33,551 nt of DNA. Origin: a virus. The notes below the pieces were generated by a model. It was not told where the DNA came from. It was given only the letters and a program-made list of their open reading frames with translations, and did no database searches. Shown in pieces: positions 1,857 to 33,551 of the stretch. A program made the translations under genes and the position numbers. The stretch lies in IMG/VR virus record IMGVR_UViG_3300045988_094565, one strand, 5' to 3'. The stretch's first letter is position 1; each line of letters begins with the position of its first letter.

Positions 1857-2636
1857 TTACTCCATGTGTTTAATTGTTAATGTTGCAATTTTGCTTCTGA
1901 TTTCTTTTTCTTTGGCTGTTGCCTGGTCCTTGGTATCGTCCGGCGGATTTCCCCCGGCTAATGCTTCCGGCGTGTTCTTGCAATATAATTTCGTGTAGTC
2001 TTGGACTGCTGCAACGGCGGTATTTTCTTCCCCCACCGACACGTTAAAGTATTTTGCGGCTTCCTCGCCGCTCAACCATGTTTCCGCTTCCATTAACTCT
2101 TTTATCTGCTCGATTGTTACGCCCTCTGCTAAATGTTCCTCGTAGATGCTCCGAATTCCGGCTTCTACGGCTTCCAATGCGTCCGCCATTTTGCGTAATT
2201 CGTTAGCGTTGCCCTCGCAATCGCACCACGGCTTATGTATCATCAAATAGGCGTTCTTTGGAATTGTTGGTTTGTCACTATCCACAAACGGAAAAAGTGA
2301 TGCTATCGAACCGGCCAGGGCATCCACAAAACAATGTTTCTTTCCCTGGTAGCGTTTAAGCATATTGTAAATAGCAATTCCGGCAAATACCGAACCGCCG
2401 CCGCTATTGATGTAAATGTTTAAATCTCTGCCGTTTGCTTCTGCAAGGAAATTTTTGATTGCATCCGGGTATTGGTCCTCTTCTTGCCATGCTCCCCACC
2501 AATCCGAAACAATATCCCCGTAAAAATAAAGGTCCGCCGTTGTATCTGTGATGTTTTTAATCTCACAAAACGGCTTTACGGTTGCGGTCTTGGCGTTTTT
2601 GCACGCAATAAACTGTTTTATCTGTGGCATTTCCAT
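1857..2636 (-). CDS. Prohead (head maturation) protease, ClpP-related S14
   Basis: INSGGGSVFAGIAIYN, ALAGSIASL (Ser) and MIHKP (His) motifs. Located between the portal and capsid genes. Confidence 0.85.
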   Translation of the reverse strand: MEMPQIKQFIACKNAKTATVKPFCEIKNITDTTADLYFYGDIVSDWWGAWQEEDQYPDAIKNFLAEANGRDLNIYINSGGGSVFAGIAIYNMLKRYQGKKHCFVDALAGSIASLFPFVDSDKPTIPKNAYLMIHKPWCDCEGNANELRKMADALEAVEAGIRSIYEEHLAEGVTIEQIKELMEAETWLSGEEAAKYFNVSVGEENTAVAAVQDYTKLYCKNTPEALAGGNPPDDTKDQATAKEKEIRSKIATLTIKHME

Positions 2637-3841
2637 TAACCCCCTTTCATAATCTGCATATAGGCACGGGCGGCCGCTTGCATTGCCCGTTTTTCTCTGT
2701 CATTTGCTCCGGTATCATCCGGCGGCTCGTTCTGCTGCCCTACCTGGTACAATGATTGGTCCCCAACCTTGACATAGTTTAGAGATACCAACCTTTGGTC
2801 CCCGTCCTCTACCGGGCCGTAATACATAAGTTCTCTGTATTCGTTAATTGTCAACGCTCCACGGTCAAACATTCCGCCGCCTATGGTTTCCCTTGTCTGC
2901 AATGTGGCATACTGTAAAAGGTTTGCCACAAAATCAATGCGGTTTCCGTAACCAATTTCACGGGGCGTTAAGAGTTTAAATGTAAACTCATAGGACAATT
3001 GCACGCTGATAGGTTCAATTACATTCTCGTAAAATGAAATAAACTCGGTATCGTTTAGCGTGGAAGTCAATATTTTGTCATTCACGCCGTAATAACGGTA
3101 TATGTTATCCCGTAAGAATGTAATTTGGTTTGTCGGTATGCTCGGCGTTCTCTGTGAGATTTCTTTAAACTCCACCGTGTTATCAATTGCGGCAATTCCC
3201 CCGGCGTTGTCCTTGTTCATATAGGCATCCTGGAAATTCCGGGCTATTTCTTTCAATTCTTCATCATCTGCGATATTGTTATATTTCAAATACCCGGCTA
3301 AAGAATTTGAACGGTTTACAATGTTCTTTATGGTTTCCCCGGATGTTTCTATGAGGTCCAGGCTTCTTTTTAACTCCATATCCGGCGTTGTTCCCAGGAA
3401 ACGGCGTTTATTATATCTCGCCTTAACATGGATTACATTTTGGTATGGCACGGTGTACGTTTTTCCGTCATAATCCCAACGGAAGCGGAAAAGGATGTTA
3501 TTTTTATCATCCTCAAAAATCCTATATGATGTTGTGGTAATCGGTTGGATGCTCTCAACCCTGGTAAAATCCTTGTTCCAAAAAATCACGGAAAAGGAAT
3601 TGGATGTATAAACCAAATCAACGGCAATACGGTATAAAAAATCATAGGTTGACATTTCCGGGCATGGGCGTAAAGATAAAAGCCTTGCAATGTAATCATT
3701 TTTAATTACCATGCCTTTTTCATCCTTACGGATTACCTGGGGTTTCAACTTGCCAACATTCTTTCCGATTGCATCCGCAATTGCTCCCACAATGTCATTA
3801 TCCCGTAATGTTCCCGTTGGCTCATACTCTCCACGGCTCAA
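2636..3841 (-). CDS. Portal protein (HK97 family)
   Basis: 401 aa between terL and the protease. The track start is a TTG. The frame stays open upstream to 3916 (see findings). Confidence 0.85.
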   Translation of the reverse strand: MSRGEYEPTGTLRDNDIVGAIADAIGKNVGKLKPQVIRKDEKGMVIKNDYIARLLSLRPCPEMSTYDFLYRIAVDLVYTSNSFSVIFWNKDFTRVESIQPITTTSYRIFEDDKNNILFRFRWDYDGKTYTVPYQNVIHVKARYNKRRFLGTTPDMELKRSLDLIETSGETIKNIVNRSNSLAGYLKYNNIADDEELKEIARNFQDAYMNKDNAGGIAAIDNTVEFKEISQRTPSIPTNQITFLRDNIYRYYGVNDKILTSTLNDTEFISFYENVIEPISVQLSYEFTFKLLTPREIGYGNRIDFVANLLQYATLQTRETIGGGMFDRGALTINEYRELMYYGPVEDGDQRLVSLNYVKVGDQSLYQVGQQNEPPDDTGANDREKRAMQAAARAYMQIMKGG

Positions 3842-8295: not shown

Positions 8296-9222
8296 TTAAT
8301 CTTCCTCTAAGGCGTATTCACGCTTGCGGCGTTTGCAATCTTCCAACATCCGTTCCAAAATGCCCGTTTCCTCTTCGGAAAGATAGATATAATATTTTTC
8401 AAGCATTTTTACGGCGTGTAATTTCTTGGCATTTGCCTTTTCTTCCTCGGATGTGTCGGTATCTGACACATTTTGTTCTTTGGCTATGTCCTCGGCGGTC
8501 TTACGCTTCTTTTTCTTCTCTTCTGACATCTGTTTTATCTCTTCGCTCTTTATATCCGCCCCGGCTTCAACTGCTGCTGCAACTTCTTTTTGTGCATCCT
8601 CGGATAATCTACTTGTTTCATAGGCACTTGTAATTTTCATATTGCCTTTTTCAAACTGCTCTTTTACCTCTTCCGTGGCATTGTTGTTAATTGCTTCCAA
8701 CTGTGCAATCTTGGTTGGTTTCTCCCCCAGGACTGCCGCCACATAATCCCTAACCCTTTTTCCCTCTTCCAGGACTAACAATTTTTCCTTTCTCGCCTGG
8801 GTCAATACCTCTTTCCAATCCGCCGCCTGGTTCATTAAATCGTAATCGGTCATTTTTCGGTTAAAGGTATTGCCGATTAGCAAGGATAATCTAAATTGCG
8901 TTTCCGTCATGTCCTTAAAGCGGCACGGGATGTTCTGCGTAATCTCCGTGTGTCCCTCGTTCTGCAAAATAACAAGGGCTTCACGCCGTCTATGTCCACC
9001 GGAAAGAAGATACTCCCCGTTTACCCGGCCAATGATTAACGGCTCTTGCAATCCGTCCATAAGAATTGATGTTGCCAATTCTTCCAAATCGTCCATGCTA
9101 TAACGGTTGTGCTTCGTAACTTTGATTTCGTCCAGGTTAAGGGTTATTGCTTCGTAGTTGTCTACGCCCTCAACTGCTGCCCTGGTTGCTCCGTTCATAA
9201 GGTCCATAATATTAAAGCCCAT
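8296..9222 (-). CDS. parB: ParB-like partition / nuclease-domain protein
   Basis: ParB N-terminal box LLSGGHRRREA, directly downstream of parA. Confidence 0.8.
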   Translation of the reverse strand: MGFNIMDLMNGATRAAVEGVDNYEAITLNLDEIKVTKHNRYSMDDLEELATSILMDGLQEPLIIGRVNGEYLLSGGHRRREALVILQNEGHTEITQNIPCRFKDMTETQFRLSLLIGNTFNRKMTDYDLMNQAADWKEVLTQARKEKLLVLEEGKRVRDYVAAVLGEKPTKIAQLEAINNNATEEVKEQFEKGNMKITSAYETSRLSEDAQKEVAAAVEAGADIKSEEIKQMSEEKKKKRKTAEDIAKEQNVSDTDTSEEEKANAKKLHAVKMLEKYYIYLSEEETGILERMLEDCKRRKREYALEED

Positions 9223-9223
9223 G

Positions 9224-10054
9224 TTATCCCCTCTCTTTCTGCTCTGCTGCCATGTGTGGTTTATTCATGTATTCCAGGATGAAATTTTTATATCCTTGTG
9301 CCGCTCCGCTTCTCACGCAATAGGCTATTGGCGTTTTGTGGTAAAATGTACTGTCTTTTACTTTCTTGGAATGGCGTATGATTGTATTAAATACGGGCAA
9401 TCCGCTTTTTTCTCTCAACCATGTTTCCGCCGCTTCGCTTGTGTCTGATTTCTCATAGTCCGTAATAAGCACCCCGGCAATGTGGGCTTTGCGGTTCAAC
9501 TGCCTAACATTGTTTACCTGGTCCACCAATTCTTCCAATCCGTCCAGAGAATAGCAATCTAAATTCACGGGTATAACAATTTCATCCGCTGCCACAAGGG
9601 CGTTTATTACATTCATGCCTAAATCCGGGGCGTTGTCTATGATGCAGTAATCATAATTTCCAAATGGCGGCGTATTTTTTAATTCTTCAAATGCCCGGCG
9701 GTATCTGTCATGTTGTGGCGTTTCCGCGTCCGCCTTAATCTCTAATTCCGCCAACTCCATAAAATAATTGCATGGTACAATGTCCAAATTCTCAATTTTC
9801 GTGTGTCTTATTGTGTTTCCCCGGAATGTGGCTCTTTTTAATACTGCTGCCGCCGGGGCTTCTGTGTCCCCCATGTATTGATTAAATAAGCGGCTTGCGT
9901 TTCCTTGCTTGTCATTGTCGAACAAAAGGACTTTTCCCGGCTCAACTGCTCCACGCTTTGATTTAAACCCGGTTGCTAATAACTCCGCCATGCTGACCGC
10001 CGTTGTAGTCTTGGCACATCCGCCCTTTAGGTTTAGTGTGCAAATAATTTTCAT
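9224..10054 (-). CDS. parA: ParA-family partition ATPase
   Basis: Deviant Walker A NLKGGCAKTTT and a Walker B-like IIDNAPDL. Confidence 0.9.
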   Translation of the reverse strand: MKIICTLNLKGGCAKTTTAVSMAELLATGFKSKRGAVEPGKVLLFDNDKQGNASRLFNQYMGDTEAPAAAVLKRATFRGNTIRHTKIENLDIVPCNYFMELAELEIKADAETPQHDRYRRAFEELKNTPPFGNYDYCIIDNAPDLGMNVINALVAADEIVIPVNLDCYSLDGLEELVDQVNNVRQLNRKAHIAGVLITDYEKSDTSEAAETWLREKSGLPVFNTIIRHSKKVKDSTFYHKTPIAYCVRSGAAQGYKNFILEYMNKPHMAAEQKERG

Positions 10055-10971
10055 GCTTTGTTCCCTCGCTTTCTTTTTTGTGGCTTGCCTTTCGGCTTCT
10101 CGCCCTTTTTAACCATACGGGCGTATATGTAAAAGGCTGCGTTTACTCCGTTGTGCTTTACCTCTGCATCCAGGAATGTAAAGCCCGGATATGCCTTTTC
10201 CATTTCTGCTTGTAACACGCTACTATCAAAGGCCATTTTCTCCACCTTTGCTTTTCTGAATTTTGAGTAACTGCGTTTTGGTTCATCCGGTTTTTTCAAA
10301 TTCTTGGACGGACACCAACGCTTTGTTCCGTGTGGGTTCTGTGTTATGTAGGTAGCAAGTCCGGTTAATAAAAAATTCTCGTCCGGGCTTATGTTCCTGG
10401 TGTTTGGTCTATCGCACTTTCCCCACATTCTTTCTAACTCGTCACGGTCTATTCCGCCGGATATGAGTAAATGAAAATGTGGGCGTGTGTATTCCTCAAA
10501 TGCGATTATGTAAATATACTTTGCATTTTCTAACCCTAACTTTTTACGCTTGCGGTTTATGCGGCGTATGAAATTAACCACATCTTTTTTTGCATCCTCG
10601 TAGGTTTCCGGCAATAACCCATTATTCCAACCAAACGTAGCCCATATATCCCCTTTCCCAAAATTGATATTGGCTAAACGGATTAAATACCGTCTTGCGT
10701 TCTTATCGTTGAGGTTTGATTGTGACGGGCTTGTTTCTCTCTTCTTTTCCGTCTTTGGCATATCTGCTTTGAATTTAAAGGACGGGTACACCATACTTTC
10801 AAGCAATGTTGTGTTGCTCTCTGTATTGGTGCTTTTGTATGTGGATGTTCTGTATAGGCAGTTTACCCACCCCTCTTTCATCCACCTTTCCATTTCTGCT
10901 TCCTCTAACTTCTTGCATTGTTCCTTGTATGCTTCCTCATAATCGTAATTGTCATAATATCTTTTACCCAT
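10051..10971 (-). CDS. Putative HUH-type (rolling-circle) replication initiator
   Basis: IWATFGW (motif 1-like), RPHFHLLISGG (HUH) and GLATYITQNPHGTK (catalytic Tyr-like), with a basic C-terminus. The assignment rests on motifs only. Confidence 0.55.
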   Translation of the reverse strand: MGKRYYDNYDYEEAYKEQCKKLEEAEMERWMKEGWVNCLYRTSTYKSTNTESNTTLLESMVYPSFKFKADMPKTEKKRETSPSQSNLNDKNARRYLIRLANINFGKGDIWATFGWNNGLLPETYEDAKKDVVNFIRRINRKRKKLGLENAKYIYIIAFEEYTRPHFHLLISGGIDRDELERMWGKCDRPNTRNISPDENFLLTGLATYITQNPHGTKRWCPSKNLKKPDEPKRSYSKFRKAKVEKMAFDSSVLQAEMEKAYPGFTFLDAEVKHNGVNAAFYIYARMVKKGEKPKGKPQKRKRGNKA

Positions 10972-16961: not shown

Positions 16962-18079
16962 TTTGTCAATAGTTTTGCGACAAGTTTTTGAAAAAATATT
17001 ATGCCGTGATTTTTTCCAACTCTTCTTTAAATAATTCTTCTGATGTTCTAAAACCAAAAATACCCCGTGGGTATGTGTTTATCCAATTTTCTATAAATTC
17101 AATGTCCCTATCTTGCTTTTCGTCAAAATCTTCCCCTTTAGGGATATGGCGGCGTATTAGTTTGTTGGTGTTCTCGTTGGTCCCTCTCTCATAACTACTG
17201 TATGGGTGGCAGTAGAATAGATATGTGCGTTTCTCCCCTGGTGTCAACGCCGAACGCTCCATGCCCTTACAATCCGAAAACTCCACGCCGTTATCTACCG
17301 TGATGCTTCTAAACACTTTAGAAAACATATCTCCCCATTTTCTTTCTAAACGGTCCAGGGCATCCACCACGCTTTCCGCCTTTTGGTCTTTTAGTTTAAA
17401 TATAATCTCGTCCCTGGTCTTTCTCTCTGTTAATACAAGCATACATGATTTTGTAACGCCTTGTTTGCCCTTTACGGTGTCCATTTCCCAATGTCCGAAT
17501 GTTTCACGGGTTGCTACTTCATCCGGGCGGTTCTCTATGCTCTCCCCGGCCGCTGCTCTCTTCTGCACCTGGACTTTCTTATTTTTCTTTTTCTTCTTGC
17601 CCTTAACGGGTAAATGTTTGTTGGTAAGTTTAAGGAATATGCCGTTGTCAATATAGCGGTATAGGGTTCTTACGCTTATAGTGGTACTAAATTCTATCCC
17701 GCTTGTTGCTACTGCTGCCAATGCTGCTTCCGGGCTATATTTATTTTCCACAATCTTATTTTCTATGTATTCCGCCAATTTAATATCATTGCCTATTTTA
17801 ATGTTTCTGCCTTTGCCCTGGGCGTTCCAATCATGGGTCTGTTGCCCCTTATCACTACTATAACGCACCTCTTCCGTATAGTCTGAATTTCTATGTACAT
17901 ACTCGCCCCGTTTCATTTCTCTGTAAATGGTGCTTCTGTGAACGTGTAAATAGTCCGCAACTTCTTGTACGGAATGACCTTTATTAAGTAGTGTTTCCAT
18001 TGATATTCTATCATTTTGGCTTAACTGTTTGTATTTTCTCCCCATAAAAATAACCCCCTTGATACGGCAATAGGGACAA
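16962..18079 (-). mobile_element. IS30-family insertion sequence (ends approximate)
   Basis: A single transposase ORF fills the element. The candidate imperfect terminal inverted repeats TTGTCAATAGTTTTGCGACAAG (16962-) and the reverse complement of 18058-18079, TTGTCCCTATTGCCGTATCAAG, match at 13 of 22 positions. No target-site duplication was confirmed. Confidence 0.4.
16999..18045 (-). CDS. IS30-family DDE transposase
   Basis: N-terminal HTH ...HRSTIYREMKRG. The catalytic core shows FGHWEMDTV (D), ITVDNGVEF (D) and YSSYERGTNENTNKLIRR (E). Confidence 0.85.
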   Translation of the reverse strand: MGRKYKQLSQNDRISMETLLNKGHSVQEVADYLHVHRSTIYREMKRGEYVHRNSDYTEEVRYSSDKGQQTHDWNAQGKGRNIKIGNDIKLAEYIENKIVENKYSPEAALAAVATSGIEFSTTISVRTLYRYIDNGIFLKLTNKHLPVKGKKKKKNKKVQVQKRAAAGESIENRPDEVATRETFGHWEMDTVKGKQGVTKSCMLVLTERKTRDEIIFKLKDQKAESVVDALDRLERKWGDMFSKVFRSITVDNGVEFSDCKGMERSALTPGEKRTYLFYCHPYSSYERGTNENTNKLIRRHIPKGEDFDEKQDRDIEFIENWINTYPRGIFGFRTSEELFKEELEKITA

Positions 18080-20463: not shown

Positions 20464-21408
20464 TTATGCTGCTGCTAAATTGGCGGCGTTTACTGCTGCC
20501 GTCACGGTGTTACCGATACCAATAACAATTCTGTCATTCTTAACCTCGATAACATCATATTTACTGTACCAACACTTAAACATATTACCGTAGTAATCGT
20601 AAGCATTGATAACCTTTACTTTCTGCCCTACCTTGAAACCGTGGGCGTTCTCCGTTTCTTCCTGGGTCGGAATGTCGGTTGGTACTTCTGCATCCGCCGG
20701 GGCTTCTGCAATCTCTTCATCCTTTGCAATGTTGGCGGCGTTTACTGCTGCCGTCACGGTGTTGCCGATACCGATAACAACACGGTCCCCGTTTACCTGG
20801 ATAACATCATATTCATCATAATAGGTTGCAAAACGCACCCCGTTGTATGTGATGTTGTCAATCACTCTTACCTTGTCCCCCACCTTATAACCGTGGGTTT
20901 CCTTGTTCGCCGGTCCCTGGTTCTCTCCGTCCCATGTATCATACTGTGTAAGGTTGTAAGAATTGATGATGTTCATTACATTCTTAATGTATGTAGGGCT
21001 TGTTGCATATCCGCCGTTTTTGATTGCGGTAATGGCACTTTCGGCGTTTCCGTTGTTTACTGCTCCGGCATAACGGGAACTTCCGCAAATCAGATTGTAA
21101 TAATCCGCCACGCTCTCTTCTGGGCTATCATAAGCACGGAAAGCGGCGGTAATCTGCGTGTATGTCTTACCGTCATAGCACTCGTTTGTTTTACTACTGT
21201 AAACCTTGCCTTTCCAACTGCTTCCGGCCTTGATGCCAAAAAACGCATTAGCCTTTGTCATAAGCCCGGATGTTCCCCACCCGGTTTCTAATGCGGCCTG
21301 TGCGATACATACAGACGGTAAAACCCATTTATCACGGGTTAAATATTCTTTTCTTGCGATTGCTGCCAATTTTGCAATAAAGGCGTTTACCTGGTCTTTT
21401 GTTGCCAT
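20464..21408 (-). CDS. Endolysin: N-terminal glucosaminidase-type muramidase domain plus two 84-aa SH3-like wall-binding repeats
   Basis: CIAQAALETGWGTS...AFFGIKA motif. There is a tandem internal repeat with a 252-bp period (KVGDKVRVI...GNTVTAAVNAANIA / KVGQKVKVI...GNTVTAAVNAANLA). Confidence 0.8.
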   Translation of the reverse strand: MATKDQVNAFIAKLAAIARKEYLTRDKWVLPSVCIAQAALETGWGTSGLMTKANAFFGIKAGSSWKGKVYSSKTNECYDGKTYTQITAAFRAYDSPEESVADYYNLICGSSRYAGAVNNGNAESAITAIKNGGYATSPTYIKNVMNIINSYNLTQYDTWDGENQGPANKETHGYKVGDKVRVIDNITYNGVRFATYYDEYDVIQVNGDRVVIGIGNTVTAAVNAANIAKDEEIAEAPADAEVPTDIPTQEETENAHGFKVGQKVKVINAYDYYGNMFKCWYSKYDVIEVKNDRIVIGIGNTVTAAVNAANLAAA

Positions 21409-21911: not shown

Positions 21912-22952
21912 TTACGCCGTTGCTTCCAGGCGTTCCCATTCATAGAATAACAATTCGTATTCAACCGCCTTTGCAATGTGGTATGTGTCGGCGTGTCCTA
22001 AATGTCCCTTTCTGCTTTCATACTTCTGGTTAAATTCTTCCGGCGGCAATTCGCCCAACTCATACGCCTTTACATCTTGCTTTAACTTTCTGATAGATGA
22101 TTTTCTTACTTTCTTGTGGTCTGCATAGTGGATATATCCGCAAAAATCTATGCCATTCCCGGCGTATAGGATTGTGCTTTTAGGGTTAATATGCAAAAGC
22201 ATTTCATTTTCCAAAAATTCTTCTATTCTCTTAACCCATTCTTTTAACTGTTCCAAATCATCCGATAGGATAATAAAATCATCCATGTACCGCACAAAAT
22301 ACGGAATATGTAAAACGTGCTTGCAAAATTTATCTAACTTATTGCCGTACACATTCGCAAATAACTGACTTGTGAGGTTTCCAACGGGTATTCCCACGCC
22401 GTCCGGCAATATGCCGTTGTGGTCTATAATATCATCCATTAACATAAGGGCTTTCTTATCCCCTATATAGCGGCGGTTTTCATCCTTTAATTTGTCATGC
22501 GGTATAGATGCAAAATACTTTGATATATCCCCTTTAAAGGCATACATCCTTAACCCTTGCTTTACCTCTGTTTCATACATCCATTGATACAATGTATCAC
22601 TTGCGGCGTGCATCCCCTTACCGCTCCGGCAAGCGTAAGAATGGTAATAAAATCCGTTTTCAAATACGGGTTGAATAGCGTTACAAATCATGTGTTGCAC
22701 CACTCTATCATAGAACGGTAACGCCATAATAAGCCGTTCTTTTGGCTCAAACACCTTAAATATCTTATATTCCCCTTGCCTATATGTTAAATTCTGTATT
22801 TCCTCGGTTGCTCTTAAAAGTTCCTCTTCCTTAACCATAGAAAAAGCCAATACCTCATTCGTGTACCGCTTGCACCTTGCCGCCTGGTGGAATGAAGTAT
22901 TGGCATTTTCAAAGGTCCCCATTTTCTCATGTAGTCCCTTTACTGTTTTCAT
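21912..22952 (-). CDS. DGR reverse transcriptase
   Basis: RT motifs include RYMDDFIILS (YMDD) and the DGR-diagnostic PVGNLTSQLFANVY ([LIV]GxxxSQ). It lies 160 nt downstream of the TR. Confidence 0.9.
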   Translation of the reverse strand: MKTVKGLHEKMGTFENANTSFHQAARCKRYTNEVLAFSMVKEEELLRATEEIQNLTYRQGEYKIFKVFEPKERLIMALPFYDRVVQHMICNAIQPVFENGFYYHSYACRSGKGMHAASDTLYQWMYETEVKQGLRMYAFKGDISKYFASIPHDKLKDENRRYIGDKKALMLMDDIIDHNGILPDGVGIPVGNLTSQLFANVYGNKLDKFCKHVLHIPYFVRYMDDFIILSDDLEQLKEWVKRIEEFLENEMLLHINPKSTILYAGNGIDFCGYIHYADHKKVRKSSIRKLKQDVKAYELGELPPEEFNQKYESRKGHLGHADTYHIAKAVEYELLFYEWERLEATA

Positions 22953-23111
22953 TTAATCCCTACCAATTTTCAAATATTCTATTTTACTAAAAGGTGGTTT
23001 GCTTTGTTAGTTTGTCCGGTATCGCACCGGAACGGGCAAACCGTCTGACTTACTTAAAATGTAAATCTTTGCTAGTGGCCGCTTGGGCTTCTATGTCTAT
23101 AAAATTGTAAA
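22953..23111 (-). ncRNA. Putative DGR RNA spacer between TR and RT (non-coding, contains nested stem-loops)
   Basis: No ORF. On the minus strand, GTTTG...CCGGT-GCGAT-ACCGG...CAAAC pairing occurs around 23010-23042. The role is inferred by analogy with characterised DGRs. Confidence 0.4.
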
Positions 23112-23238
23112 GTCACACACGCACCGCACACCAATGTTCGTGTTCACGTTCCACGGGTAATTGTTGCAATTGACGGCACGGCTACCGCAATGCACGCCGT
23201 TGTTCCAATTGCCGCCGCCAATGAGGGCGTGCAAGGCT
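23112..23238 (-). repeat. DGR template repeat (TR), 127 nt
   Basis: Aligns without gaps to 23766-23892. All 10 mismatches are at T on the plus strand, which is A on the coding strand of the TR. Confidence 0.92.
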
Positions 23239-23307
23239 CAGAAAGTTCCGTGAACTGGCCCGGTGCATATTAACAGTTTCCCCAAAATAAAATTGGCAAT
23301 GCCAACA

Positions 23308-23729: not shown

Positions 23730-23749
23730 GGGTGGGCTTTCGCCCACCC
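23730..23749 (-). promoter_or_regulatory. 8-bp GC-rich hairpin with GAAA tetraloop, 16 nt downstream of VR
   Basis: The minus strand reads GGGTGGGC-GAAA-GCCCACCC. It lies between the target stop codon and avd. Confidence 0.75.
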
Positions 23750-23756
23750 TGGCAGA

Positions 23757-24851
23757 TTACAGACTGTCACACACGCACCGCACACCAATGCTCGCGCCCA
23801 CGTACCACGGGTAAGTGTTGCAAATGACGGCACGGCTACCGCAACGCACGCCGTTGTTCCAACCGCCGCCGCCAATGAGGGCGTGCAAGGCTGTTTGTGA
23901 CGGCATATAAATTTGACCGTAGCCGGACATAACATTGTACCAATTCCAGGATGCAGCGGTTGGGTCTAAACACAACTCGTTAAGCCACTCCCACACGTTC
24001 CCGGCAATATCCATAATATTTTTTACAGAAATTGCATTTTTGATTTTTCCAACGGCGGTTCTTGCGGTGTTTGTTGTTGCGGTCCAACCGTTTGTATTGC
24101 TACCGTCTAATCCCTGGGGGCTTCCCTCTGCTGCAATTAACCACTCTGCAAAGTCCGGTAAACGCTTTCCGACACGGGCAGCCTTTTCATTGGCAATATA
24201 CCAATTTAAACCCTCTGTACCCGTAATAGGCGTTGCATTATATACAGATTGTAAGCCGTTCGCCCCATCATCTGATGCAAGGTAAATATCAGCCCACAAA
24301 CCATTCCCCAGGTATGCCATACCGGACGGGTCGCACTTCGGACGGTGTAAGGCGGTCCATACAGAGTTAGGGGCAATGTCCTCACGCACGTTACTTTCCC
24401 AACCGCTACCACGCACACTTCCACTTGTATTTACTTCTCTGCCGTATTCATCCACATTTCTAACAAAGCCATAATGGAAACCGCCAATTTTACGGGTGTT
24501 TGTATCGTCCCATTCCACGCCGTCCGGGAATGTGGAATTTTCAGAGATTAAATAAACCTCGTTTGAACTGTCCTTGCCATTGTTGCATAAGTAAATGTAA
24601 TAATCTTTGCCGTGTGCAAAGCTGCTTGCACCGTCCAGGTTGGCGGCGGAAAGCGTTGTTTCTTCGGTCTGAAAAATGGCATCCCCTACCGCAATAACTG
24701 CCCCGGCAAGCACGGTTAATTGTCCGGCTGCGGAATACTGTATAAACGCCTTTTCACTCGCTACAATGTCCGATACGGCGGCCATTTTAGCAACTGTGAT
24801 TTTCGCCCTCTCGTCCGTCATATTCTCGTCATAAACAAATAATCTTCCCAT
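23757..24851 (-). CDS. DGR target protein: tail-fibre-associated receptor-binding protein with C-terminal C-type-lectin / FGE-sulfatase-like fold
   Basis: GNVWEWLNE motif. The C-terminus GGGGWNNGVRCGSRAVICNTYPWYVGASIGVRCVCDSL carries the VR. Last gene of the tail module. Confidence 0.88.
   Translation of the reverse strand: MGRLFVYDENMTDERAKITVAKMAAVSDIVASEKAFIQYSAAGQLTVLAGAVIAVGDAIFQTEETTLSAANLDGASSFAHGKDYYIYLCNNGKDSSNEVYLISENSTFPDGVEWDDTNTRKIGGFHYGFVRNVDEYGREVNTSGSVRGSGWESNVREDIAPNSVWTALHRPKCDPSGMAYLGNGLWADIYLASDDGANGLQSVYNATPITGTEGLNWYIANEKAARVGKRLPDFAEWLIAAEGSPQGLDGSNTNGWTATTNTARTAVGKIKNAISVKNIMDIAGNVWEWLNELCLDPTAASWNWYNVMSGYGQIYMPSQTALHALIGGGGWNNGVRCGSRAVICNTYPWYVGASIGVRCVCDSL
23766..23892 (-). 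repeat. DGR variable repeat (VR), 127 nt, encoding the last ~42 codons of the target gene
   Basis: 117 of 127 positions identical to the TR. The differences are confined to TR adenines. Confidence 0.92.
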
Positions 24852-33061: not shown

Positions 33062-33454
33062 TTACCCCCTTAATTTGCTTTCAATCTTTCCGGTTACCAT
33101 TTCGCCCAATTGTTCATTGACCGGGGCAATGTGGCTAAATGCCTTTACACGGCCCCCTTTTCTGCTTTGGTGTCCGTTTTCCAAAAGGTGGGTTAATTGG
33201 TAATGCTTCTTGTTATAAACGCTATATCCATTTAACCCGGTAACTACACTTGTCCGGCTTCCTCGCTTGTCAACCGCCCAATCTTTTGTGTATGCTCCGG
33301 TTCTTTCCTGGTACGGTCCGCCTTTTTTTAACATTTCTGCGGCTTCTTTTGCCGTTTCCTGGAAACTGTCATTTGCTGCGTTTATCACTTCCGCATTGAA
33401 ATTTTCCAATTCTTTTTTTATTTCTTCGTCCAGGCTATCAAGTGAAACTTTCAA
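33062..33454 (-). CDS. HK97 gp10-family head-tail joining protein
   Basis: ...YQLTHLLENGH... motif and size. Its start lies inside the 141-bp terminal duplicate, showing gene continuity across the junction. Confidence 0.6.
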   Translation of the reverse strand: MKVSLDSLDEEIKKELENFNAEVINAANDSFQETAKEAAEMLKKGGPYQERTGAYTKDWAVDKRGSRTSVVTGLNGYSVYNKKHYQLTHLLENGHQSRKGGRVKAFSHIAPVNEQLGEMVTGKIESKLRG

Positions 33455-33551
33455 CCTTTCCCCACCCTTTCCGCAATATACAACTCCGTTTTTCCGTTGC
33501 TCTTCGGTCCGTAGGTTCTGTATACCGCATAACGCTTTCCGTCTATGGAAA
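33411..33551. repeat. Second copy of the 141-bp terminal overlap (identical to 1..141)
   Basis: Direct comparison. Confidence 0.9.

Follow-up and report, generated by a model that had tools for sequence, protein, structure and literature searches.

Adenine-specific divergence between template and variable repeats points to a canonical, BPP-1-type diversity-generating retroelement in a siphovirus-type phage of gut Clostridia

The window analysed here, the whole 33,551-nt stretch of DNA in IMG/VR virus record IMGVR_UViG_3300045988_094565, is a complete 33.4-kb phage genome whose ends overlap by 141 nt. Between a siphovirus tail module (a tape-measure ORF, Dit and a Gp37-like Tal) and the lysis genes (holin and endolysin) lies a cassette encoded entirely on the minus strand, ordered along transcription as a target gene containing a variable repeat (VR), a hairpin, avd, a template repeat (TR), a spacer and a reverse transcriptase (RT) gene (Table 1). 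The genome also carries ParA, ParB, a Rep initiator and a transposase-like gene, and a tRNA scan of it found none. Megablast of the cassette against GenBank phages returned no match, and in BLAST-type identity the RT reaches no more than about 42% with the nearest GenBank phage RTs, which are those of Aeromonas phage phiARM81mr, Clostridium phage Saumur, Vibrio phage VP585 and Faecalibacterium phage FP_Lagaffe. Judged by these comparisons, the lineage is one that has no close relative among GenBank phages and that occurs many times in IMG/VR, as well as in one Clostridiaceae isolate genome.

All three cassette proteins match solved proteins of the Bordetella phage BPP-1 system, namely Mtd, bAvd and bRT. 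The target is matched by the Pfam families mtd_2nd (9e-30) and FGE-sulfatase (3e-10), by PHROG 11262 'tail protein' (2e-71) and by the PDB structures of Mtd (1YU0-1YU4/2IOU, E ~4e-15), with residues 30-364 aligned and the VR included, and homology thus places the VR within a protein-coding target, at the C-terminus of a predicted C-type-lectin-fold domain. The avd product matches Pfam bAvd (3e-25), PHROG 3206 'Avd protein of DGR' (2e-27) and the PDB entries 4DWL (4e-5) and 8UB7_B (3e-4). The RT matches Pfam RVT_1 (1e-18) and PHROG 1423 (4e-116), and its best PDB match is bRT (8UB7_A, 5e-51 over residues 6-328), compared with 5e-14 for retron and group II RTs. It carries VGNLTSQ at residue 190, which is a form of the [I/V/L]GxxxSQ motif defined as the signature of diversity-generating retroelement (DGR) RTs (PMC7826257), YMDD at residue 222, and a conserved arginine equivalent to R74 of bRT. 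By these motifs and best matches, the RT is assigned to the DGR clade. The RT, avd and target ORFs are all intact, and the catalytic motifs are kept.

Table 1. Position and character of the cassette features in the window.
Feature	Position	Strand	Description
DGR target gene, 364 aa	23757..24851	(-)	Mtd-like tail/receptor-binding protein by homology; predicted C-terminal C-type-lectin (FGE-sulfatase) fold
VR	23766..23892	(-)	Target codons 320-362; ends 2 codons (S, L) ahead of the stop
IMH-like VR 3' end TTGGTGTGCGGTGCGTGTGTGAC	23766..23788	(-)	A-poor, G-rich (G/T-rich); identical to the TR end at 23112-23134
Hairpin/cruciform GGGTGGGC-GAAA-GCCCACCC	23730..23749	(-)	8-bp GC stem, GRNA tetraloop; starts 16 nt past the VR
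avd, accessory variability determinant, 129 aa	23308..23697	(-)	Assigned by Pfam bAvd, PHROG and PDB
Upstream RNA box GGGGAAACUGU	23273..23283	(-)	5' strand of the long-range duplex bracketing the TR; cPRT-Stop-like
TR	23112..23238	(-)	Intergenic; 27 A, 25 of them at codon positions 1/2 in the VR frame
Whole TR-RT spacer, 159 nt	22953..23111	(-)	Presumed Sp part of the DGR RNA
Spacer stem-loop UAG-AA-GCC...GGC-CA-CUA	23073..23093	(-)	18 nt past the TR; candidate Avd-binding stem-loop
Spacer stem-loop GAUUUAC...GUAAGUC	23047..23067	(-)	From the covariation alignment
Duplex 3' strand ACGGUUUGCCC	23034..23044	(-)	Pairs with 23273-23283
Stem-loop UCCGG...CCGGA	22997..23031	(-)	Directly past the duplex strand, then the A-rich tract CAAACUAACAAAGCAAAC
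DGR reverse transcriptase, 346 aa	21912..22952	(-)	Assigned by Pfam, PHROG, PDB and motifs

An independent repeat search recovered the TR and VR as a 127-nt direct repeat, 92% identical with a spacing of 654, and the similarity between the two copies breaks off sharply at either end. An earlier note, made from the sequence alone, had aligned the copies without gaps and had reported that they differ at adenines of the TR only. Scripted re-alignment agrees with this throughout: it contains no gaps, 10 of the 127 positions differ, and the mismatches fall at the TR positions that had been listed (23137, 23141, 23143, 23144, 23150, 23161, 23170, 23191, 23209 and 23210), each a T on the plus strand of the TR, that is, a coding-strand A. 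The plus strand of the VR shows C at seven of these positions, A at two and G at one. A mismatch at a TR base other than adenine, which would speak against the reading given there, was looked for, and there are zero in the window. The TR holds 27 coding-strand adenines, as counted before, and the exact hypergeometric probability that all ten mismatches fall on them is 4.0e-8 (the binomial estimate of 0.21^10 offered earlier evaluates to 1.9e-7), such that chance, which the earlier note had called very unlikely, is ruled out. A tandem duplication in the endolysin gene of the same genome (family D2; 20473-20561 versus 20725-20813) serves as an internal negative control, and its copies mismatch at all bases.

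In the target frame the TR reads ...GGGNWNNGVHCGSRAVNCNNYPWNVNTNIGVRCVCD and the VR ...GGGGWNNGVRCGSRAVICNTYPWYVGASIGVRCVCD, translations that are unchanged from those first proposed, as are the eight changed codons (N>G, H>R, N>I, N>T, N>Y, N>G, T>A and N>S). Six of the eight are AAY codons and carry 8 of the 10 substitutions, which bears out the statement that changes lie mostly in such codons. Seventeen complete TR codons contain at least one A, again the number given before, and nine of these are AAY; the first base of the repeat is also an A, and it fills position 3 of a boundary codon. A stop codon cannot arise from any A-to-N change in the TR codons. With 25 of the 27 adenines at codon position 1 or 2 and nine AAY codons, and with stops unreachable, the template could specify up to ~2.5e15 protein variants on the ligand face while keeping the C-type-lectin scaffold. 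Strict and relaxed pattern searches of the genome for further or remote VRs found none, and the system as such has a single VR.

The comparison of VR alleles in related genomes that the earlier note had proposed was made with about 40 related loci, which IMG/VR yielded in two scans and the GTDB genomes in one; among them is a prophage region of Clostridiaceae bacterium Marseille-Q4145 (L022). In the close group, made up of the window plus those 14 loci from the first scans in which both repeats are present (RT 81-100% identical), 149 of 155 TR/VR differences in the 15 pairs lie at TR adenines, with a spectrum of 82 A>G, 43 A>T and 24 A>C. All 15 VRs are distinct, and there are only 6 TR variants. 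Locus L020 has 10 of 11 differences at A, and 17 more distant loci (RT 76-81% identical) have 189 of 200. In the pool of 32 pairs, namely the window and 31 related metagenomic or prophage loci, TR adenines account for 348 of 366 differences; non-adenine differences of a similar order are known in 23% of catalogued DGRs. The TR itself is nearly invariant, being 100% identical in 11 of the 18 loci with a TR copy and 99.2% in four more.

The divergence of the VR stands out most clearly against the DNA that surrounds it. Among close relatives the VR is 87-91% identical, and the flanks (RT, avd, spacer and intergenic sequence) are mostly 99-100% identical, with lowest values of 93.3% for avd (L012) and 97.1% for RT (L016). 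L001, the nearest relative, differs from the window at 13 VR positions, every one of them a TR-A site, and at one of the neighbouring 813 nt (Fisher p = 3.6e-11). Pairs of phages with 0-3 differences in the 813 nt beside the VR have 12-16 within it, nearly all at A sites; L022 was left out of this comparison, since an indel upsets ungapped comparison. In near-identical phages, VR divergence is 10- to 100-fold above that of flanking DNA, and such a contrast implies that diversification is younger than the split of the near-identical genomes. On the time scale set by how far these phages have diverged, the earlier suggestion of recent DGR activity is thus well supported.

A-to-G changes dominate the substitution spectrum, and it is dA that bRT most often inserts opposite A in vitro. 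The excess of A-to-G over the in vitro preference of bRT may reflect selection; an RT with a misincorporation preference of its own, unlike that of bRT (dC opposite A, seen as A-to-G), is a weaker possibility. Two further peculiarities are seen among the related loci. L019 contains a 440-nt mosaic block identical to the window; the 100% conservation of its spacer was considered as a sign of strong selection, and this was rejected because the block also spans the first 240 nt of the RT gene. In two related contigs that are independent of each other, L013/L030 and L048, the VR-side flank is joined straight to the TR-side spacer and RT, and avd is missing. That these contigs are real products of recombination between VR and TR, rather than of assembly collapse, seems to us quite unlikely. 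If the joins were real, they would provide a natural route for a phage DGR to inactivate itself, or for the template to be 'reset' with a mutagenised copy.

Candidate DGR cis elements lie in the shared 3' end of the repeats and in the DNA beyond it. The 23-nt IMH-like end is free of mutation in all 15 loci of the close group, where variable adenines span TR coding indices 9-104 and the adenines at indices 1 and 126 are invariant. As mutated sites stop at index 104, the 3' limit of mutagenesis lies inside this A-poor shared end, and so, probably, does the start of the cDNA. IMH and IMH* do not differ within the repeat, and TR and VR sequences part only past it; identical IMH and IMH* are on record for some DGRs (PMC5758913). 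Discrimination between target and donor would then have to draw on the hairpin past the VR or on sequence lying outside the repeat, as far as can be judged from the sequence. This hairpin has a DNA fold of -11.2 kcal/mol (z = -3.9), is kept in every relative with a loop of GAAA or GGAA only, and is absent after the TR. Experimentally derived criteria for the inverted repeats of phage DGRs describe a GC stem of 7-10 bp with a 4-nt GRNA loop, located 4-34 bp from the VR (PMC3240598), and the 8-bp stem, GAAA loop and 16-nt distance found here all fall within them.

Around the TR, covariation points to a conserved RNA structure. The published RNA elements of the bRT-Avd RNP, namely the cPRT Stop duplex, the Avd-binding stem-loop and the TR:Sp primer duplex (bioRxiv 10.1101/2023.10.23.563531), were used as a guide, and the alignment comprised 12 distinct sequences, each made up of the upstream box and 132 nt of spacer. 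A long-range duplex between the upstream box and its 3' strand in the spacer brackets the TR with 11 pairs, and 99% of its cells are paired. The core of the upstream box is unchanged in 12 of 12 distinct relatives, with columns 3-12 invariant and column 2 a U in L035/L036. In these two loci each strand of the duplex is one base shorter (GGGAAACUGU / ACGGUUUCCC), with the loss of one pair, and this shortening appears in the gap-free alignment as a change on both sides at columns 2/117, and as G-C at 5/114. The stem-loop nearest the TR (23073-23093) has 6 pairs, 4 of them compensatory, and the next (23047-23067) has 7, of which 1 is compensatory and 1 shows a change in a single strand; in both, 100% of cells are paired. 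The stem-loop directly past the duplex occurs as the compensatory variants CCGGU/ACCGG, CCGGCG/CGCCGG and CCUGG/CCAGG. Besides the long-range duplex, this post-duplex stem-loop and the stem-loop 18 nt past the TR, there are two further small helices. The explicit structure of 33 pairs has 98.7% of cells paired, and compensatory changes occur at 8 of its pairs, a result that 0 of 500 shuffles attain, and slid partners are 35-59% paired with 0-1 compensatory pairs, statistics that are optimistic because the structure was drawn by eye from the same 12 sequences, which are few and related.

The long-range duplex, the adjacent stem-loop and the A-rich tract appear to resemble the published cPRT Stop arrangement, and the helices flanking the TR resemble, by analogy, the published bRT-Avd RNA elements, with helix-to-protein contacts that would follow from the same analogy. 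A template-primer (TR:Sp) duplex with its priming adenosine was sought in the spacer RNA, and no consistent candidate was found. The avd-TR-spacer RNA as a whole is no more stable than shuffles (z = -1.3), such that thermodynamics alone is uninformative and support for the RNA comes from covariation. In the MFE fold the 3' end of the TR showed a 10-bp complementarity to a box that precedes the TR (AUAUGCACCG), and this pairing was dropped, since it is lost in diverged relatives. An Rfam scan of the whole window, cassette included, matched zero families.

Three other accounts of the repeat pair need to be weighed. Direct repeats are common in phage genomes, and with one of them in the endolysin gene of this very phage, the TR and VR might be thought an ordinary duplication or gene-conversion tract that has diverged by random point mutation. 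Such divergence would not place ten of ten differences on one base of one copy (p = 4e-8), nor repeat the same adenine bias in 31 more loci, nor leave one copy invariant among relatives while the other is hypervariable, and the endolysin repeat itself is without such a base bias. Random divergence, which the earlier note had named as a reading that would overturn its own, is rejected on the p value together with this contrast within one genome, and we regard the probability of an ordinary duplication as negligible. It could also be proposed that the DGR is decayed or dormant and its VR differences old and merely inherited, and the L013/L030 and L048 contigs, without avd and with VR joined to TR, could be seen as products of such decay. 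This is very improbable for the window, given its intact RT, avd and target ORFs with their catalytic motifs, the conservation of the cis hairpin and the RNA helices among relatives, and the 12-16 VR differences found between phages that differ at 0-3 positions in the neighbouring 813 nt.

The remaining alternative concerns the allele rather than the mechanism. The source is evidently a metagenome-type circular contig, with its 141-nt terminal overlap, and repeat-related mis-joins seem to occur in related contigs, such that the VR of the window could be a consensus or chimera that assembly made from a mixture of VRs rather than one real allele. The VR is in frame, however, its differences from the TR are at A sites only, and its scaffold is intact, and we therefore consider this unlikely. 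Even a chimera, if its parts were real alleles, would speak for DGR activity, and the main conclusion would be unchanged.

Taken with the complete and intact cassette, the adenine-specific pattern supports the interpretation first given to it, as the probable signature of adenine-specific mutagenic retrohoming. We consider it highly probable (roughly 93%) that the cassette is a canonical DGR of the BPP-1 type, carried by a siphovirus-type phage of gut Clostridia. In the mechanism that we propose for this DGR, an RNA consisting of the avd end, the TR and the 159-nt spacer would fold into an RNP with the RT and pentameric Avd, a fold that we infer from covariation and from homology to BPP-1. The RT would copy the TR to cDNA, starting inside the A-poor TR 3' end and misincorporating opposite template adenines only. 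The cDNA would then take the place of the VR in the 3' end of the gene for the Mtd-like tail protein, presumably guided by two elements, the IMH-like end that both repeats share and, 16 nt downstream, the GC hairpin with its GAAA loop. Homology and established knowledge of DGRs suggest each of these steps, namely assembly of the RNP, cis-primed reverse transcription with mutagenesis at A, and replacement of the VR under the direction of IMH and hairpin, and it is by the same analogy that we infer retrohoming in vivo, cDNA synthesis and its priming site, and binding of a receptor by the target protein. The biological role of the system is likely to be altered or broadened recognition of host receptors.

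The DGR of Bordetella phage BPP-1 (mtd-avd-TR-brt) is the closest model for this system. The two share the gene order of target, avd, TR and RT, a target homologous to Mtd along its whole length with the VR scaffold included, Avd and RT proteins homologous to bAvd (4DWL) and bRT (8UB7), a C-terminal VR with a TR rich in AAY codons, an 8-bp GC hairpin with a GAAA loop past the VR, and a predicted RNA with a long-range duplex around the TR, an adjoining stem-loop and an A-rich tract. They differ in that sequence identity is low, the host of the window phage is a Gram-positive member of the Clostridia whereas that of BPP-1 is a proteobacterium, the IMH and IMH* of the window are indistinguishable within the repeat, its hairpin begins 16 nt past the VR, and the spectrum of its lineage is led by A-to-G, in contrast to the A-to-T expected from the in vitro dA preference of bRT.

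Other DGRs resemble it in part. Those of gut Firmicutes/Bacillota phages and prophages, such as Faecalibacterium phage FP_Lagaffe and Clostridium phage Saumur, are likewise phage-borne, have C-Lec tail targets and come from the gut (PMC8144416). This comparison set includes the viral DGR clades 1, 4 and 6 of Roux et al. 2021 (PMC8144416), and the RT of the window is 38-40% identical to those of FP_Lagaffe/Saumur-type phages. Cellular DGRs such as those of Legionella LdtA and Treponema TvpA also perform adenine-specific mutagenic retrohoming into a VR of C-Lec fold. Such DGRs reside on chromosomes or ICEs, they diversify lipoproteins of the surface, and their targets may be several or remote, unlike the one target in the window, which is adjacent and belongs to a phage tail module.

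Gut phages of Firmicutes, Bacteroidetes and Proteobacteria abound in DGRs that have C-Lec tail proteins as targets (PMC8144416), and with the abundance of such phage-borne DGRs in the human gut already documented, our data leave the knowledge of DGRs unchanged. What they add is a well-resolved example, in which a complete circular genome is accompanied by the natural TR/VR pairs of 31 related loci, an allele series that gives the per-site usage of the 27 template adenines. They also bring covariation support, in a phage of the Bacillota, for the RNA elements of the Bordetella bRT-Avd RNP, and could aid the choice or engineering of compact DGRs for Gram-positive hosts.

Positions 1-141 and 33411-33551 of the window are an exact 141-nt repeat. 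The window thus spans a complete genome, circular or terminally redundant, with a length of 33,410 bp, in which the minus strand carries every long ORF. The presence of ParA-like, ParB-like and replication initiator genes together with a transposase-like gene, with no integrase seen among the window ORFs searched, suggests a phage-plasmid or transposable lifestyle. The related locus L022, a prophage region in Clostridiaceae bacterium Marseille-Q4145, nevertheless sits within a 1.19-Mb Clostridiaceae contig. The endolysin has two tandem repeats at its C-terminus with a period of 252 nt (20473-20561 versus 20725-20813, 84% identical), which are probably duplicated cell-wall-binding modules and which served as a negative control for the TR/VR comparison.

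Replication, partition, transposase-like and endolysin genes of the window
Feature	Position	Match or domain
ParB-like gene	8296-9222	
ParA-like gene	9224-10054	
Replication initiator gene	10051-10971	
Transposase-like gene	16999-18045	phrog_4646, 6e-140
Endolysin	20464-21408	glucosaminidase domain

When the VR of the window (23766-23892) was considered together with the VRs of the related loci L001-L057, A-to-G was the leading substitution, accounting for 82 of 149 changes in the close loci (the window and 14 relatives, RT 81-100% identical) and 124 of 189 in the 17 distant loci (RT 76-81% identical). This is in contrast to the bRT-Avd complex of Bordetella phage BPP-1, for which dA was the commonest misincorporation in vitro and would appear as A-to-T; the spectrum reported here may reflect selection, enzyme bias or both. 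The adenines of the TR were used unevenly: index 95 (numbered along the repeat on the coding strand) was variable in 14 of the 15 close loci, and indices 48 and 56 in one of the 15 each. Within the TR itself, single substitutions at adenine sites were found in two close relatives, A>G at index 56 in L002 (position 406) and A>C at index 48 in L014 (position 615), and these may be rare TR polymorphisms or small VR cross-overs arising from assembly.

Two related IMG/VR contigs, L013/L030 (positions 1-134) and L048 (positions 2241-3332), lack avd. In both, a copy of the repeat links the VR-side 5' flank, which is the end of the target gene, with the spacer and RT of the TR side. The fused repeat copy is nearly TR-like in L048; that of L013 carries 17 changes at adenine sites, which places the crossover within the last 25 shared nt. 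Such fusions reflect either genuine recombination between VR and TR or assembly collapse. A similar choice applies to L019, on a contig shared with L037. Here the 3' end of the TR, the entire spacer and 240 nt at the start of the RT gene form a block of ~440 nt that matches window positions 22710-23150 at 98-100% identity, while the rest of the cassette is just ~60-85% identical; either diverged DGR cassettes have recombined into a mosaic, or the assembly is chimeric.

At window positions 22953-22990, the final ~20 nt of the spacer ahead of the RT start codon are UAUUUGAAAAUUGGUAGGG, a sequence that is invariant in all relatives, down to an RT identity of 74%. This conservation exceeds the need of a ribosome-binding site alone.
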